Source: a virus (Duplodnaviria; Caudoviricetes). From it: a DNA stretch of 64,000 nt. Shown in pieces: positions 3,990 to 35,425 of the stretch; the stretch's first letter is position 1; each line of letters starts with the position of its first letter. The stretch is from positions 308,284 through 372,283 of the IMG/VR virus record IMGVR_UViG_3300014208_000024; one strand, given 5' to 3'. The notes under the pieces are model-generated. The model ran no database searches, was not told where the DNA came from, and worked only from the letters and a program-made list of their open reading frames with translations. The position numbers were made by a program, and so were the translations under genes.

Positions 3990-5726
3990 ATGGGAAAAAA
4001 ACCAAAAAAAATTTTCACAAAGGAAGAATGTGCAGAAATTGTAAGTAAATGTAAAACAATTTCAGATTTTAGTATTAATTTTTTTCCAGCCTATTATTGT
4101 GCAAAAAAAAACAATTGGCTTGATGAAATTTGTTCTCATATGAAAATCACATTTACAAAAAAATATTGGACAAAAGAATTATGTCAAAAAGAAGCAGATA
4201 AATATTCTACAAGAGGAGAATTTGTTAATAATAGTAGTGGTGCATATTGTGCCGCTATTAGAAACGGTTGGCTTGATGAAATTTGTTCTCACATGATTAG
4301 ATTGGTGCCAATAAGAGGATATTGGCAAATTAAAGAAAATTGTATTAAAGCTGCATTAAGTTGTGAAAATATAAAAGAATTCAGACAAAAATATAAAACT
4401 GCAAATAACTCTTTTATAAAAAATGGATGGGTAAAAGAATTAAATAATATCTTTCAAAAAGACTATAAAAAAGATTTTAGATTTAAAGAAAATTGTATTG
4501 AAGCTGCTTTAAATTGTAAAACAAGAACTGAATTTAGAGATAAATACAGGGGGGCTTATAAATCTGCAAAAAAAAATGGCTGGTTATATGAAATTTATCA
4601 ATTATTTCCAATTGTGGGAAATAAATATAAAAGATTAATATATGCTGTTGAATTCCCAGATAATAATGTATATATAGGATTAACATATAATCTTAAAATA
4701 AGAATGATTCAACACACATGTTCAAAAAGGTCTCAAGTATATAAACATATACAAAAAACTCAATTAAAACCTTTTTTTAAAGAGTGTACAGAATTTATGG
4801 ATATAACAGATGCTACAATTTATGAAGGAAAAATATTAAATTCATATATAAAAAATGGTTGGAATATTTTAAATAAAGCAAAGACAGGAGGTTTGGGAGG
4901 AAATAATAAAAGAGAGTATGAAAAAGAAGATTGTCTTAATATTGCATTAATGTTCCTTTCTAAAGAAGAATTTAATGCAAATTATCCGAAAATATATAGA
5001 GCAGCTTATAAGTTTGGGTGGTTAGATGAAATATGTTCTCATATGGAAATAAAAAGTAAAAAAGAAATATTTTTTATTGAATCATTAAAATATAGTTCCA
5101 GAAGAGAACTTCGCTTAAATAACATAAACCTTTATAATAAAATATTAATAAATAAGTGGATGGATGAGTTTTTTTCTAAAAAACAAATTACAAAAGAAGA
5201 ATGTCAAAAAATCGCAAATCAATATGTTTTATTTGATAAATTTAAAGAAGAGAATTTAAAAATTTTTTATTTTTTAAAGAAAAATGGATGGACAAAAGAA
5301 GTTACAAAAAAATTAAAAAAAATAAGAGTAAATTGGAATATAAAAGAAAAATGTCACCAAGAAGCTCTTAAATATAAAACCAGATTTGAATTTGGTAGAA
5401 AATCTTCACAAGCATATAAAGCTTCATATAAAAATGGTTGGCTTGATGAAATATGTTCTCACATGATAGAAATTAGAAAACCAAAAAAATATTGGAATAA
5501 AGAAACTTGTTTAAAAGCAGCTTTAGAATGTCATAATTCAAAAGATTTTTGCAAAAAATATCCCCGTGCATACAGAATAGCTTGTGAGAATAAATGGATG
5601 AAAGAAATAAAAGAAAATTGGAAACTATTAAAAAACAATTCTAATATTGTTAATGAATTTATACCAGTGTTTTCACAAACAGAAAACTCAAAACAACTGG
5701 TTCTAAATTTTGACCAAAAAAATTAG
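3990..5726 (+). CDS. GIY-YIG homing-endonuclease-like protein with tandem NGWLDEICSHM repeats
   Basis: Central IYAVEF...VYIGLT and R..QH motifs flanked by multiple C...A.KY.SR.EF...AY..A.KNGWLDEICSHM repeats. Confidence 0.75.
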   Translation: MGKKPKKIFTKEECAEIVSKCKTISDFSINFFPAYYCAKKNNWLDEICSHMKITFTKKYWTKELCQKEADKYSTRGEFVNNSSGAYCAAIRNGWLDEICSHMIRLVPIRGYWQIKENCIKAALSCENIKEFRQKYKTANNSFIKNGWVKELNNIFQKDYKKDFRFKENCIEAALNCKTRTEFRDKYRGAYKSAKKNGWLYEIYQLFPIVGNKYKRLIYAVEFPDNNVYIGLTYNLKIRMIQHTCSKRSQVYKHIQKTQLKPFFKECTEFMDITDATIYEGKILNSYIKNGWNILNKAKTGGLGGNNKREYEKEDCLNIALMFLSKEEFNANYPKIYRAAYKFGWLDEICSHMEIKSKKEIFFIESLKYSSRRELRLNNINLYNKILINKWMDEFFSKKQITKEECQKIANQYVLFDKFKEENLKIFYFLKKNGWTKEVTKKLKKIRVNWNIKEKCHQEALKYKTRFEFGRKSSQAYKASYKNGWLDEICSHMIEIRKPKKYWNKETCLKAALECHNSKDFCKKYPRAYRIACENKWMKEIKENWKLLKNNSNIVNEFIPVFSQTENSKQLVLNFDQKN

Positions 5727-19408: not shown

Positions 19409-19600
19409 CTCACGAAGCGAAAGGAAAAACAGGGTTTCAGGTTTTTGTTACTTAGAGTTTTTGTGCAGTCAGCTTCAAAGGGTTAAATTCCCTTGCAAAA
19501 CTCACTTGAAAGTTAAAACCTCCTGATCTGGTTAAACCCCAGATAACTTCGATGGTGTGAAAACCGAAAAAAAGAGGGGTGAAATCCTCTTTTTTTATTT
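19409..19600 (+). ncRNA. Candidate structured small RNA (about 190 nt)
   Basis: Class-A promoter, no ORF, nested helices AGGTTTT/AAAACCT, GAGTTTT/AAAACTC, AAGGG/CCCTT and ATCTGG/CCAGAT, then a terminator. Confidence 0.55.
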
Positions 19601-23485: not shown

Positions 23486-24436
23486 ATGGCAAAAAGAAAT
23501 AATTTTTTCAATAAAAGAAAAAATAACTATTACGATTTTGGAGATAACATTTGGGGTCAAATATTATCCACAAGTGGAATAAATGGTTTTATGCACGATA
23601 TGTTTGTAGACATGAGCAGACGTGAACACCAAGAAAAACTGAAAAAAGCTGGAATCGTATTAAACGAAGAACATAATCTCTTTGGAGTGCCAAGCAAAAA
23701 TATTCCATTTAAGTATATTAAAATTGATTTCATTCATGACAAATTTTATGTTTGTTATGTTAAAATGGATTATGTTAAAATGGATATTGACGATGATTTT
23801 CAAATGGTTACTGTTTGTAAAGAAGATGGAACAGAAATGTTTACAGTTGAAGAAAAGAGTTTTGATTACCTGCACTTTGAAGATTTTTTTCTTGTAAAAG
23901 AAAGAAAAGAAAAAAACTATATGCTTCATGGTCTTTGTGGCACAATTAAAACAAAACACGTTTTCAGACCAATGTTTCATTCTAAATTTGATAAAGATTC
24001 TGATTTCTGTATTCTGGGGAATAATGATTTCTCTGGTGAATGTGTTATAAACAAAAAAGGTGAAGTTGTTTTTGAAAAGAAAGATTACAATAGCCTTTAT
24101 CTTCATGGAAACATTTTAAGCACAGGAAGTAAAAATTATAACCTGTTTACGGGGGAATTAATTTGTGATAAAAGTTATCACAGTTCCCTCGATATAAAAG
24201 AATTTATGTTTATTCAGGTTGATGTTAATCAGGTTTATAAGATCAACAAAAAAACCTGTGAATTTGAAGTCTTTGGAGAACCAAAACAAGCCCCTAAGTT
24301 AAACGATATTAAAATTTGTGAACACTCAGACACCACAGTTGCAGAAGTTCTCCCCAAACTCATTAAACAGGGCAGAAATGATATTTGTCAATGTGGTTCA
24401 GGTAAGAAGTTTAAAAACTGTTGCATGAAAAAGTAA
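23486..24436 (+). CDS. Beta-rich protein with C-terminal SEC-C zinc motif
   Basis: C-terminal KQGRNDICQCGSGKKFKNCC; WG-repeat-like central segments. Confidence 0.75.
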   Translation: MAKRNNFFNKRKNNYYDFGDNIWGQILSTSGINGFMHDMFVDMSRREHQEKLKKAGIVLNEEHNLFGVPSKNIPFKYIKIDFIHDKFYVCYVKMDYVKMDIDDDFQMVTVCKEDGTEMFTVEEKSFDYLHFEDFFLVKERKEKNYMLHGLCGTIKTKHVFRPMFHSKFDKDSDFCILGNNDFSGECVINKKGEVVFEKKDYNSLYLHGNILSTGSKNYNLFTGELICDKSYHSSLDIKEFMFIQVDVNQVYKINKKTCEFEVFGEPKQAPKLNDIKICEHSDTTVAEVLPKLIKQGRNDICQCGSGKKFKNCCMKK

Positions 24437-24473
24437 CTCTCCCTCTTTTTAAAATAATTTGCTTTATATCTAC

Positions 24474-24920
24474 ATGGAAGAAAAAAAAGAAATAGGCATT
24501 AGGGCTCCTCTCCCCGAAATTGATCCCTTAAAAGATGTTACTATTATTGGCGCTGGTCATGTTGGCGTTGGAAAATCTTCTCTCATACAAGTTGAGGCAG
24601 CAATAAGAATGATGGCAGAAGGAAAAAAGGTAATTGTTATCACAGGTGATACAACTCCAAACATTGATCTTTCAAAAATTGATTTGGATAGCATTTCAAT
24701 TCCTGTTTTAAAAAAGATAAGTGAATTTCCAAGTCCAGTAATTTACGACCATGATACTCCAAACAAATTGGAAATGTTAAGGAATTTAAAACTTTCTCCT
24801 GAGCAAATTGATTACTTCCAAAATTCACCACCACAAAGATTGGAAGGGGAAAAACAAGAAGATTATAAAACTCGTAGAATGTTAAATAAATTAATTATAA
24901 AATATAGGGGGCAATTCTAA
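24474..24920 (+). CDS. Hypothetical protein with glycine-rich loop
   Basis: IIGAGHVGVGKSS near the N-terminus; class-A promoter. Confidence 0.6.
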   Translation: MEEKKEIGIRAPLPEIDPLKDVTIIGAGHVGVGKSSLIQVEAAIRMMAEGKKVIVITGDTTPNIDLSKIDLDSISIPVLKKISEFPSPVIYDHDTPNKLEMLRNLKLSPEQIDYFQNSPPQRLEGEKQEDYKTRRMLNKLIIKYRGQF

Positions 24921-25097
24921 TGATTCTATTAAATAACAGTCAAAGTTTATTGCAACTTCCTGTGGAATATGCTTATTTTGTAGGTATTTTAATCGTTTTA
25001 TTTTTAATTGGATTGCCTATAAGAATTTGGCTTTACAGAAGAAAGACAGGAAAAAATCAATAGTTCTTCCACTTTTTTAAAAAATTTGCTTTATATA

Positions 25098-25492
25098 GTT
25101 GTAACAAAAAAAACGGGTTATCCGTATAAAATATTGGGAAAGGGTCGCTAAGGTTCCACCCCAAAACTGCGAAAGCGGTTCCGCAATGCCCAAAGCTTGC
25201 TTTATGGGAACCACCGACAGCCCGTCCCAAAGGTTCATTGAGAATATAAAAAAATCTCCTATAACAGCCGAGTACGGTTGGTTGGAAAATGGAGATTCTG
25301 TCCGTACAACAGTTTTGGGATAAATGCTCATAATTAATAATCCCGCCGACATTTGAATGATCGGTTATGCCCCGTATGAAGCCGAGACCCTTAAGTGGCT
25401 CTGGCAATGACTGGGGCGCTAATAATCCTGAATAAAGAGCAATCCCGATGAACCGAAGGGGGGTAGGCAGTTCGCCTGTTCCCTCTTTTTTT
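25098..25492 (+). ncRNA. Candidate large structured ncRNA (about 390 nt)
   Basis: Class-A promoter, no plus-strand ORF, GC-enriched, long-range helices CCCAAAACTG/CAGTTTTGGG and AAGGGTC/GACCCTT, GAAA and CUUG tetraloops, terminal hairpin + U tract. Confidence 0.65.
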
Positions 25493-25547
25493 ATTCCCAC
25501 TTTTATAAATAATTTGCTTTATATACTCATAACCAAAAATTAAGGTC

Positions 25548-25748
25548 ATGGAAACAAAAAGTTTAGACAAAAAAAAGAAATCAATAAAAGTAAAAGAAAT
25601 GTATAAATTTCTTGGGAAGTTAATTAAAGAAGGAAAAGGCGACTATAAAATGAAAATTGACTTAAATGAATATTATGTAAGTTTAAAACGAATTTCAGTA
25701 ATTGATGAATCAACTGTTTGTGAAAACAAAACTATAAATGTTTCATAA
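25548..25748 (+). CDS. Hypothetical protein
   Basis: ORF behind class-A promoter. Confidence 0.7.
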   Translation: METKSLDKKKKSIKVKEMYKFLGKLIKEGKGDYKMKIDLNEYYVSLKRISVIDESTVCENKTINVS

Positions 25749-25822
25749 TTCCCACTTTTGTAAATAATTTGCTTTATATACTTGAAAGAAATTTTTATTA
25801 ACTAACACTAAATCAATTAATT

Positions 25823-26295
25823 ATGGGCTTCACGCACTACTTCTACAGAAAAGAAAAGTTAGATCAGAAAACATTTGATCTCTTTGTTAAAGATGTAAAA
25901 GCAATCTTCGCTGATACCAAAAGGCAAAAAAGAATTGCAATAGTTAACGGCTGGGGTGAAATGGGAACTCAACCAATAGCAAACTCAGAAGAAATTTGTT
26001 TCAATGGAGTTCAAAACACAAAAACAAATGTTGACAACAGCCATGAAACAATGTACATTTCACGTGTTGCAAACAAGAGCATTTTTACACCTGATTCCCC
26101 CTCGCTTTCGGGTTTTGCAAAACAGCAAGGAAGCCTTATGACAGGGTTGTAACAGCGGTTCTTATAGCATTTAAACATCATTTTCCTCATGCACAAATTC
26201 ATTCTGACGGTGATATTGAAGATTTTGAGCTTGGCCGCAAAACTTGTACAAAACTCTTTGGTTACGGTTTTGGCTTTGAACTTGACAAAGATTAA
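25823..26295 (+). pseudogene. Frameshifted conserved-type phage gene (missing C in C5 run at 26097-26101)
   Basis: MGFTHYF...FNG...HET continues as PLAFGFCKTARKPYDRVVTAVL...SDG in the -1 frame. Confidence 0.75.
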
Positions 26296-26345
26296 AAAGA
26301 TTGGGTTCACCGTTATCCCCCCCTGGAAAACGGTTTGGTTATGAT

Positions 26346-30178: not shown

Positions 30179-30214
30179 TTTGCTTTTTTGTAACCTTTTT
30201 TATATCTTTGCGTA
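30179..30214 (+). promoter_or_regulatory. Overlapping host-type and ECF-type promoters for the tRNA cluster
   Basis: TTTG-N20-TATCTTTG (30179-30210) overlapping TGTAAC-N16-CGTA (30189-30214). Confidence 0.65.
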
Positions 30215-30341: not shown

Positions 30342-30414
30342 TGCAAGGTAGAGCAGTAGTTAGCTTGCGGCGCTCATAACGCCGAGGTCGTCGGTGCAAA
30401 TCCGACCTTTGCAA
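30342..30414 (+). tRNA. trnM: tRNA-Met(CAT), initiator-like features
   Basis: Full cloverleaf; anticodon arm CGGCG-CTCATAA-CGCCG; A11-U24; T-loop TGCAAAT; lacks the three consecutive G-C anticodon pairs. Confidence 0.9.
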
Positions 30415-30562
30415 CAAAGAAAAAATAAAAATGAAAGTTAATTTTAACATAGAGGAAAGCGAGGAACGTTTACTGAAAAGTATCCCTGCTAAAACTATGT
30501 AAAAGTACTGAAAAAGTAATTTGAAAAGAGGGATGCGAAAGTTTCCCTCTTTTTTTATTTAT

Positions 30563-34737: not shown

Positions 34738-34798
34738 ATTCCCACTTTTTTAAATAATTTGCTTTATATAGTTGTTAGATAAATTAAAACTTAAGAAA

Positions 34799-35425
34799 AT
34801 GAAAGACGTAAAAGAGATGAGTAAGAGTGCAATAGCCGATTTGGAATTGGTTAACGCCATCAAAAGTGAAGACAAAAGAAAATCAGAAAAGGCTTTTTCT
34901 CTGCTGTTTAAAAAATACCATGATACTATGCTGTTTCACTTCAGGGGATTGGTAAAAGATGAAGAAGATGCAAAAGAAATTGTTCTCGAAGCTTTTGTAA
35001 AAGTAAGTTCAAACATTGAAAAATTCAATCAGGATTCCGCTGTGTTCAGCACATGGTTATTCAGACTTACACAGAATCTTTTCATCGATAAACTGAGAAA
35101 GAAAAAAGATGATGTTGTTTCTCTTAGCGACATGGCTACATATGACGAAGATAGCCATACTTTCGAGTTCGACTTTGAAGATTGTGATGGAACTCCTGAA
35201 TCTAAAATACTGGATTCAGAAAAAGAAAGAAGAGTAAATGAAGTTCTTTCAAAAATGGAAAATCAGGAACTTGCCGAAATGATAAAAATGAGATATTTCC
35301 AAGGTCTGTCATACGAAGAAATCTCTAATGTTACGGGTAAACCTTTGGGAACTATAAAAGCTTTTATCTTCAGAGCAAAACAATTTCTGAAAAAAGACCT
35401 TAAAAGAGCTAAATTAAATTTTTAA
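34799..35425 (+). CDS. ECF (sigma-70 group 4) RNA polymerase sigma factor
   Basis: Region 2 AFSLLFKKY...DAKEIVLEAF...FSTWLFRL..N..ID..RK; region 4 MRYFQGLSYEEIS..TGKPLGTIKAFIFRAK. Confidence 0.9.
   Translation: MKDVKEMSKSAIADLELVNAIKSEDKRKSEKAFSLLFKKYHDTMLFHFRGLVKDEEDAKEIVLEAFVKVSSNIEKFNQDSAVFSTWLFRLTQNLFIDKLRKKKDDVVSLSDMATYDEDSHTFEFDFEDCDGTPESKILDSEKERRVNEVLSKMENQELAEMIKMRYFQGLSYEEISNVTGKPLGTIKAFIFRAKQFLKKDLKRAKLNF

Follow-up and report, generated by a model that had tools for sequence, protein, structure and literature searches.

A probable stand-alone gene for a folded non-coding RNA of ~355 nt in an uncultured jumbo phage

Large structured RNAs without a known function are rare, and new families of them have tended to reveal new RNA biology; ROOL (roughly 580 nucleotides (nt) long), GOLLD and OLE, for example, proved to be assemblies made of RNA only. 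The phi29-type packaging RNA (pRNA), a phage structural RNA of ~120–174 nt, adjoins the genome end and the packaging genes and depends for its function on base pairing from copy to copy through complementary hairpin loops. The small stable RNAs of T4-type phages (species 1/2, bands C/D), whose function is unknown, are much shorter, lie inside a transfer RNA (tRNA) cluster and are transcribed together with the tRNA genes. Here we analyse an element at positions 25098–25492 of the last 64 kb of IMG/VR record IMGVR_UViG_3300014208_000024 (372,283 base pairs (bp) of phage DNA originating from groundwater samples; we will henceforth refer to these 64 kb as the window, and all coordinates refer to it unless stated otherwise). 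Our best full explanation, which we consider likely, is that the element constitutes a stand-alone gene of the phage, encoding a folded non-coding RNA (ncRNA) of ~355 nt whose family is absent from Rfam; that it is a genuine, functional structured RNA gene appears very likely.

ROOL and GOLLD, large and ornate RNAs of phages and prophages whose function is unknown, would be its nearest described analogues, if loosely so. In both, covarying kissing loops form the contacts between RNA copies in nanocages, as shown by cryogenic electron microscopy (cryo-EM; bioRxiv 10.1101/2024.12.08.627333), and many GOLLD members are longer than 800 nt (bioRxiv 10.1101/2024.12.08.627333). Like these RNAs, the element is a stand-alone, highly structured phage-encoded gene without an open reading frame (ORF), with a multi-domain fold and a covarying loop-loop pairing, and like them (they often occur near tRNA islands) it has a small tRNA island a few kb away. 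Unlike them, it is only ~355 nt long and known from two lineages only. To phi29 pRNA it compares as a phage-encoded structural RNA with complementary hairpin loops, and to the T4-type small stable RNAs, by description, as a non-coding RNA of a large T4-related phage.

We used cmscan to search Rfam with the window at gathering thresholds, and with 24900–25700 and the matching region of a divergent homolog (positions 5700–6300 of contig L025, described below) at E ≤ 10. The stretch had no match at gathering scores, and at E ≤ 10 there were only two chance matches to small nucleolar RNAs, so that neither the window copy nor the homolog has an Rfam family. Specifically, the covariance models of ROOL RNA (RF03087) and GOLLD RNA (RF01998) matched neither copy at E ≤ 10, which excludes the RNA from both families, and the phi29-type pRNA family did not match the stretch. 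The first-pass annotation of this DNA had failed to match the element to transfer-messenger RNA (tmRNA), RNase P or group I cores; cmscan at E ≤ 10 and ARAGORN agree, the latter finding no tRNA or tmRNA in the stretch and, as the only tRNA gene of the window, a tRNA-Met at 30342.

Gene boundaries and transcription signals

The element differs from its genome in composition. As the first-pass annotation had noted, it is enriched in guanine and cytosine (GC): GC content is 0.44–0.47 across 25100–25499, compared with a phage genome mean of 0.287 (28.7%; standard deviation (sd) 0.055 in 200-nt windows), an excess of about 3.4 sd. The plus strand lacks a usable ORF, as had also been seen, the longest having 45 amino acids (aa), and because the three frames carry mixed TAA, TAG and TGA codons, no single stop reassignment opens any of them. 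Compared with shuffled sequences, the fold energy of the stretch corresponds to z = −3.4 on the plus strand and z = −2.4 on the minus strand.

All the transcription signals read in the first pass were found in place. Upstream, at 25067–25097 on the plus strand, lies a copy of the cassette ('class-A') promoter, a TTCCAC-T-rich box followed by TTTGCTTTATATA; it belongs to a direct-repeat family (D1/D4/D9) of 52 copies, each ~30 nt, that stand before most of the small plus-strand genes making up the bulk of the window. It is followed immediately 5′ of the RNA body by a promoter of the extracytoplasmic function (ECF) type, TGTAAC-N17-CGTATAA (25100–25129, plus strand). At the other end, an 11-bp hairpin (25458–25484) and the U tract after it form an intrinsic terminator (25458–25492, plus strand), the only terminator-like site in 24300–26300, and the next gene has its own copy of the cassette promoter at 25493–25525. 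The GC island, the homolog and the covariation described below place the RNA gene at 25130–25492 on the plus strand, ~355 nt from the ECF-type promoter, with an inferred 5′ end. Both flanking signals are kept in the homolog: its counterpart of the ECF-type promoter reads GCAAC-N16-CGTATAA, the distance from the C of CGTA to the first helix is 11 nt in both, and a terminator hairpin with a T run occurs at the matching place, although with different stem letters.

Related sites of the form TGTAAC-N16-CGTAT occur at 30192 (150 nt 5′ of the tRNA-Met gene), 39903, 41165 and 52878, with several others shortly before the start of the window. In its bare form, AAC-N16/17-CGTA, the pattern shows no enrichment genome-wide (27 and 45 sites per strand compared with ~40 expected); the information lies in the extended consensus alone. 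At 34772–35425 the phage has its own gene for an ECF sigma factor, with matches to Sigma70_r2, Sigma70_r4 and Sigma70_ECF, and we infer that this factor reads the promoter of the RNA. Transcription would then start ~7–10 nt past the conserved ECF-type promoter, and with the start placed there the RNA and the nearby tRNA-Met (site 30192) fall into one promoter class, i.e., a conserved promoter type of the RNA that also precedes a phage tRNA gene. The upstream cassette promoter may give a second transcript. One contig of 173 nt from an RNA-seq metatranscriptome of freshwater (X4) covers 25284–25456 at ~93% identity and a depth of 2.4.

Homologous loci and covarying architecture

The homolog was found through a neighbouring gene. 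The P-loop protein encoded upstream of the RNA (24474–24917; 148 aa, with a SIMIBI-like Walker A motif) has 22 homologs at 40–62% identity on cassette-type phage contigs, which led to L025, an NCBI assembly of 34.5 kb with a 387-nt gap that holds no called gene, 1.4 kb 3′ of its P-loop gene. nhmmer aligned the window RNA to this gap with E = 3e-13 (~70% identity overall; 77.5% over 98 nt in the best BLAST block), and the L025 stretch folds with z = −6.7. A second, identical copy is carried by contig L026. The window version has identical copies in one JGI contig and one Logan contig, and there is one copy per genome. In addition, two short variants from independent freshwater runs are ~93–95% identical to the window RNA: X4, introduced above, and X3, a 228-nt contig from a DNA run that covers 25155–25377. 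Their indels are not multiples of three, and their changes lie in predicted loops or linkers or preserve hairpins. Two more runs, X7 and X8, contain small shares of the sequence words of the RNA and do not count as evidence here.

To count covariation we used a MAFFT alignment of the window RNA with its L025 homolog, fitted to no structure, and seven helices taken from the folds shared by the two. All 41 pairs in these helices are paired in both RNAs (100%), with 10 compensatory changes and two one-sided wobble changes. By contrast, slid controls, in which the 3′ partners were moved by 1–3 columns, gave no compensatory change and had 22–45% of their cells paired. Where MAFFT was structurally off, manual alignment added seven compensatory pairs (two in the closing helix of the 5′ domain and five in hairpin H1), although such hand-made alignments are weaker evidence than the MAFFT count. 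Compensatory changes thus occur in at least seven helices, which argues for selection on pairing. The first-pass annotation had proposed a new large phage ncRNA and had counted missing covariation among homologs as one of the findings that would refute it; the 10 compensatory pairs, compared with none in the slid controls, support the proposal, alongside the lack of an Rfam family, a homolog that keeps the structure, and a promoter and terminator kept with it.

The RNA is organised in two domains whose closing helices are one nucleotide apart, and the terminator hairpin follows 3 nt past the second. The 5′ domain (25134–25230, plus strand) is closed by UUGGGA (25134–39) with UCCCAA (25225–30), which in L025 becomes UUGAAAG with CUUUCAA and includes two compensatory G-C to A-U changes in the manual alignment. 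Its interior, consisting of a GGUUCC/GGAACC helix and two hairpins, is lineage-specific: in the window ensemble it has pairing probabilities of 0.7–1.0 and forms a three-way junction with a GAAA-capped hairpin, whereas L025 has a single hairpin. The hairpin after an AAAAC motif is kept in both lineages.

The 3′ domain (25232–25454, plus strand) is well conserved. Its closing helix, GGUUCAUU (25232–39) with GAUGAACC (25447–54), keeps 8 of 8 pairs, with one compensatory change and a probability of 0.86–1.0. An arm at 25253–25297 (plus strand) comprises helix Pa (25253–58/25292–97; two compensatory changes), a conserved internal loop (UAUAA / GAAAA) and helix Pb (25265–71/25278–84; two compensatory changes and one wobble change), capped by the 6-nt loop GUACGG (25272–77). 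Next to it stands hairpin Pc (25298–301/25309–12) with the 7-nt loop CCGUACA; its four pairs are kept without compensatory changes, one U-A having become U-G. The loops of Pb and Pc are complementary over 6 bp (25272–77/25302–07), a loop-loop (kissing) pairing that changes from GUACGG/CCGUAC in the window to GUGCAG/CUGCAC in L025, with two compensatory changes and 6 of 6 positions paired in both. Two long-range helices then enclose a variable centre (25317–25446): Pd (25317–21/25442–46), which is invariant and so shows no compensatory change, and Pe (25325–29/25437–41), on which Pd is stacked and which has three compensatory changes in five pairs.

The centre holds two hairpins. H1 (25345–52/25357–65) has eight pairs and a conserved bulged A, and its manual alignment to L025 6041–6063 contains five compensatory changes and no broken pair. 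H2 (25369–25417) consists of an outer GCCCCG/UGGGGC helix and an inner hairpin (25381–25405), both with a probability of about 1.0, while L025 has one long hairpin at this position. The changes in X4 are gathered in the inner H2 hairpin loop and in the linker 25418–25436; within H2 they lie in the loop or in an inner stem that is re-registered, and the H2 fold keeps its energy (−21.1 compared with −21.8 kcal/mol). In X3, five nucleotides are added to the A-rich linker, and C25268U keeps its Pb pair as U-G. The conserved unpaired elements are this A-rich linker (25240–25252), the Pa/Pb internal loop and the junction strands UUUGGGAUA and AUCCCGAUGAA.

The individual helices proposed in the first pass fared differently. 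GUACGG (25272) with CCGUAC (25302) is the loop-loop contact described above, with its two compensatory changes. GGUUCC/GGAACC and AACUGC-GAAA-GCGGUU reach a probability of at least 0.9 in the window ensemble; covariation is uninformative for them because the 5′ interior is built differently in L025. AAAG-CUUG-CUUU has an ensemble probability of 0. AAGGGUC (25140) with GACCCUU (25386) was rejected: it has a probability of 0, costs 14 kcal/mol to enforce and is not conserved, its 3′ strand being a hairpin loop that varies in a related contig. The 10-bp helix CCCAAAACUG/CAGUUUUGGG is within chance at its full length, a perfect helix of at least 10 bp arising in 7% of shuffles; it has a probability of 0 in the nested ensemble, overlaps Pc and Pd, and costs ~10 kcal/mol to enforce. 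What survives of it in the homolog is a core of 6–7 bp with wobble pairs, where CUCGAA could form with UUUGGG (6 bp, two of them wobble), so that 25160–66 with 25313–19 may be an alternative or pseudoknotted pairing.

Possible roles and competing explanations

Three things generally expected of an ncRNA gene are present: its own promoter and terminator, no ORF, and compensatory pairs in a homolog. As for what its product does, we see roughly even chances that it is a trans-acting architectural or binding RNA and not a catalyst or a cis-regulator. It would then act as a folded particle, i.e., as an architectural RNA or a binding platform in the manner of ROOL and GOLLD, and the loop-loop pairing, the A-rich linker and the Pa/Pb internal loop may serve tertiary contacts or contacts with other RNA copies or proteins. 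The arms bearing the kissing loops are very unequal (~13 bp plus an internal loop compared with 4 bp), meaning that the contact, if intramolecular, would require the conserved internal loop to bend sharply; otherwise it would be intermolecular. Self-association through the kissing loops is a tentative proposal that we consider not very likely. Slightly more doubtful is that the Pb and Pc loops pair between copies to build a defined homo-oligomer, which would add a compact third class to the phage RNA-only assemblies ROOL and GOLLD; if true, this would be a phage RNA-only assembly made under a phage ECF sigma factor. The length of the RNA suits synthesis, chemical probing and cryo-EM, and its architecture is backed by covariation, the tertiary loop-loop contact included.

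Several points count against the interpretation as a new ncRNA gene of this kind. The known lineages amount to two divergent ones plus two short, low-depth variants, and with so few the covariation is one pairwise comparison for which no R-scape-type statistic is possible. The 5′-domain interior and the H2 region differ in build between the two lineages, and exact-pattern scans of IMG/VR, JGI metagenomes and GTDB genomes yielded chance matches only. Contigs reveal neither transcript ends nor strand, and the sole contig from an RNA library could be contaminating DNA. No protein partner is linked to the RNA, and the contigs of many P-loop homologs lack it.

Among other roles for an RNA, a decoy or sponge that binds a host defence protein or another RNA-binding protein (an anti-defence RNA) is a sub-case of trans action that we consider rather unlikely. 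The gene is surrounded by small, fast-changing cassettes of early type, as is typical of host-takeover genes, and the A-rich linker (25240–25252) and the Pa/Pb internal loop offer conserved single-stranded elements; yet no recognisable mimic of a known target (tRNA-like, CRISPR-repeat or retron-like feature) is present, and Pfam and PHROG identified no defence-related neighbour. A ribozyme, either self-cleaving or self-processing or else a trans-acting catalyst tied to the 46 tRNAs of the phage (e.g., a very divergent RNase P-like RNA), seems less probable again. A catalytic core would be in keeping with the size, the junctions of several helices, the loop-loop contact and the strict conservation of UUUGGGAUA and AUCCCGAUGAA. 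The RNA has its promoter type in common with a tRNA gene, it is similar in size to type A RNase P RNA, and its GGAAAG...GACCCUUA pairing at first sight recalls helix P4, which in RNase P is formed by the conserved regions CR-I and CR-V. However, none of the RNase P clan models (RF00010, RF00011 and the rest) matched in the window, and the best score of L025 against RNaseP_bact_a was 8.5 bits, on the terminator, compared with a threshold of 100. Nor did group I and II introns or small self-cleaving ribozymes match at E ≤ 10; the element sits between complete genes and not within one, no cleavage-site signature is visible, and the P4-like pairing AAGGGUC/GACCCUU, rejected above, is not conserved. 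A cis-acting leader or riboswitch of the 66-aa gene downstream (25548–25748), which lies directly 3′ on the same strand, is very improbable: a strong terminator and a full copy of the cassette promoter (25493–25525) intervene, the gene at this place in L025 is a different 75-aa ORF, and no riboswitch family matched.

Two further explanations would deny that a functional RNA exists. A decayed remnant without function (a fragment captured from a host, or a defunct gene or tRNA array) might account for a GC content foreign to the phage, the more so as the other GC islands of the genome are mostly tRNA arrays, but it is as improbable as the leader, given the compensatory changes in at least seven helices, the conserved promoter and terminator, the absence of tRNA-like matches at E ≤ 10 and the absence of similar DNA in 151 Bacteroidota genomes, the GTDB pattern scan or the phage collection. 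Still more improbable is that the antisense frame of 147 aa (25057–25500, minus strand; GTG start, no internal Met), which the first pass had named as a finding that could overturn its proposal, is a real gene and the RNA structure incidental. Only 0.9% of dinucleotide shuffles have a fully open frame over 388 nt, gene callers annotated it on three assemblies, and one minus frame is open in each of the reconstructed X3 and X4. The last holds only because, at indels, the reading crosses from one frame to another, the net indels of +5 in X3 and −1 in X4 shifting the antisense frame. Moreover, the ORF has no Pfam or PHROG match and recovers itself only from 5.8 billion clusters and 1.84 billion representative proteins; its codon-position GC is flat (0.46/0.42/0.42, compared with about 0.40/0.30/0.26 in neighbouring genes), and it opposes all neighbouring genes without a promoter of its own. 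In L025 every minus frame is closed by 2–6 stops and no gene is called, while antisense translations of the window and L025 are 35% identical where the nucleotides are 77% identical. Neither mostly synonymous, frame-keeping homologs nor peptides were seen. We therefore judge the ORF spurious, a by-product of GC-rich, stop-poor sequence.

The stand-alone ncRNA gene gives a concrete example of real RNA genes in the ORF-free cassette slots that uncultured jumbo phages have, slots that gene callers fill with spurious antisense "proteins". Since they did so here, ORF-free GC-rich RNA genes in AT-rich phages can seed orphan "protein" clusters in large databases.

Three other kinds of RNA were tried and rejected. 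A degenerate tRNA array had no tRNA-like match at E ≤ 10, an antisense regulator would have extended complementarity to the phage genome where only A-rich, low-complexity matches were found, and a CsrB-like sponge with GGA loops did not fit, the GGA motifs being, by eye, mostly in stems.

Distribution, source phage and other ORF-free cassettes

Searches for further copies covered several collections. No match was obtained when both the window RNA and the L025 RNA were compared with 50,697 phage records (blastn, distant mode), when a 50-aa piece of the antisense ORF was used as a query for homologous RNA loci, or in a 20-mer scan of GTDB genomes. An 18-mer scan of IMG/VR returned three contigs, all representing one unrelated coding region, and a 19-mer scan of JGI metagenomes returned four chance matches in unrelated contexts and with no Rfam family. 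Patterns of two or three motifs from the blocks shared with L025 gave 71 matches in GTDB and 4+1 in IMG/VR, of which nhmmer or the covariance model upheld none, and a cassette-promoter pattern gave no further contig in IMG/VR. The RNA was absent from four IMG/VR fragments carrying terminase relatives (74–79% identity) and from the flanks of the other P-loop homologs on their contigs, and a 316-aa neighbour protein had no relatives in IMG/VR. A covariance model of the RNA (R1), which spans 145 positions, found no copy in 151 Bacteroidota genomes and had no match at window 19412–19599, which is therefore not a paralog.

By its terminase the phage is a distant T4/RaK2-like jumbo phage, the identity to terminases of T4/RaK2-like and Flavobacterium phages in culture being only 23–30%. 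ARAGORN predicted 46 tRNA genes in the whole genome, at 1803–77067 outside the window and at 30342–30415 within it. Three of the 46 have suppressor-type anticodons (one UUA, reading UAA, and two CUA, reading UAG), a hint that stop codons may be suppressed or recoded in part of the phage. Among the GC islands of the genome, the strongest (0.575, at genome positions 140601–141000) lies within a 1126-aa minus-strand ORF (140349–143729) that adjoins the terminase gene; it could represent an intein, intron or captured segment. The exact sequence of the P-loop protein (P0003; 24474–24917) also occurs on a 455,767-bp contig, so that a longer assembly of the phage or of a near twin exists.

Other ORF-free cassettes were seen on related contigs. 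Directly 3′ of the P-loop gene, L102 (1069–1309) and L023 (4466–4657) carry a different one with a common, strongly folding small RNA of ~130–150 nt (z = −7.4 and −3.5 against mononucleotide shuffles), unrelated in sequence to the window RNA. Finally, L022 (4761–4974) and L023 (5116–5275) have in common an ORF-free cassette with the GC-rich hairpins GGGAG...CUCCC and GGGGUUCGG...CCGAGCCC followed by a T run, which is probably one more small phage RNA.

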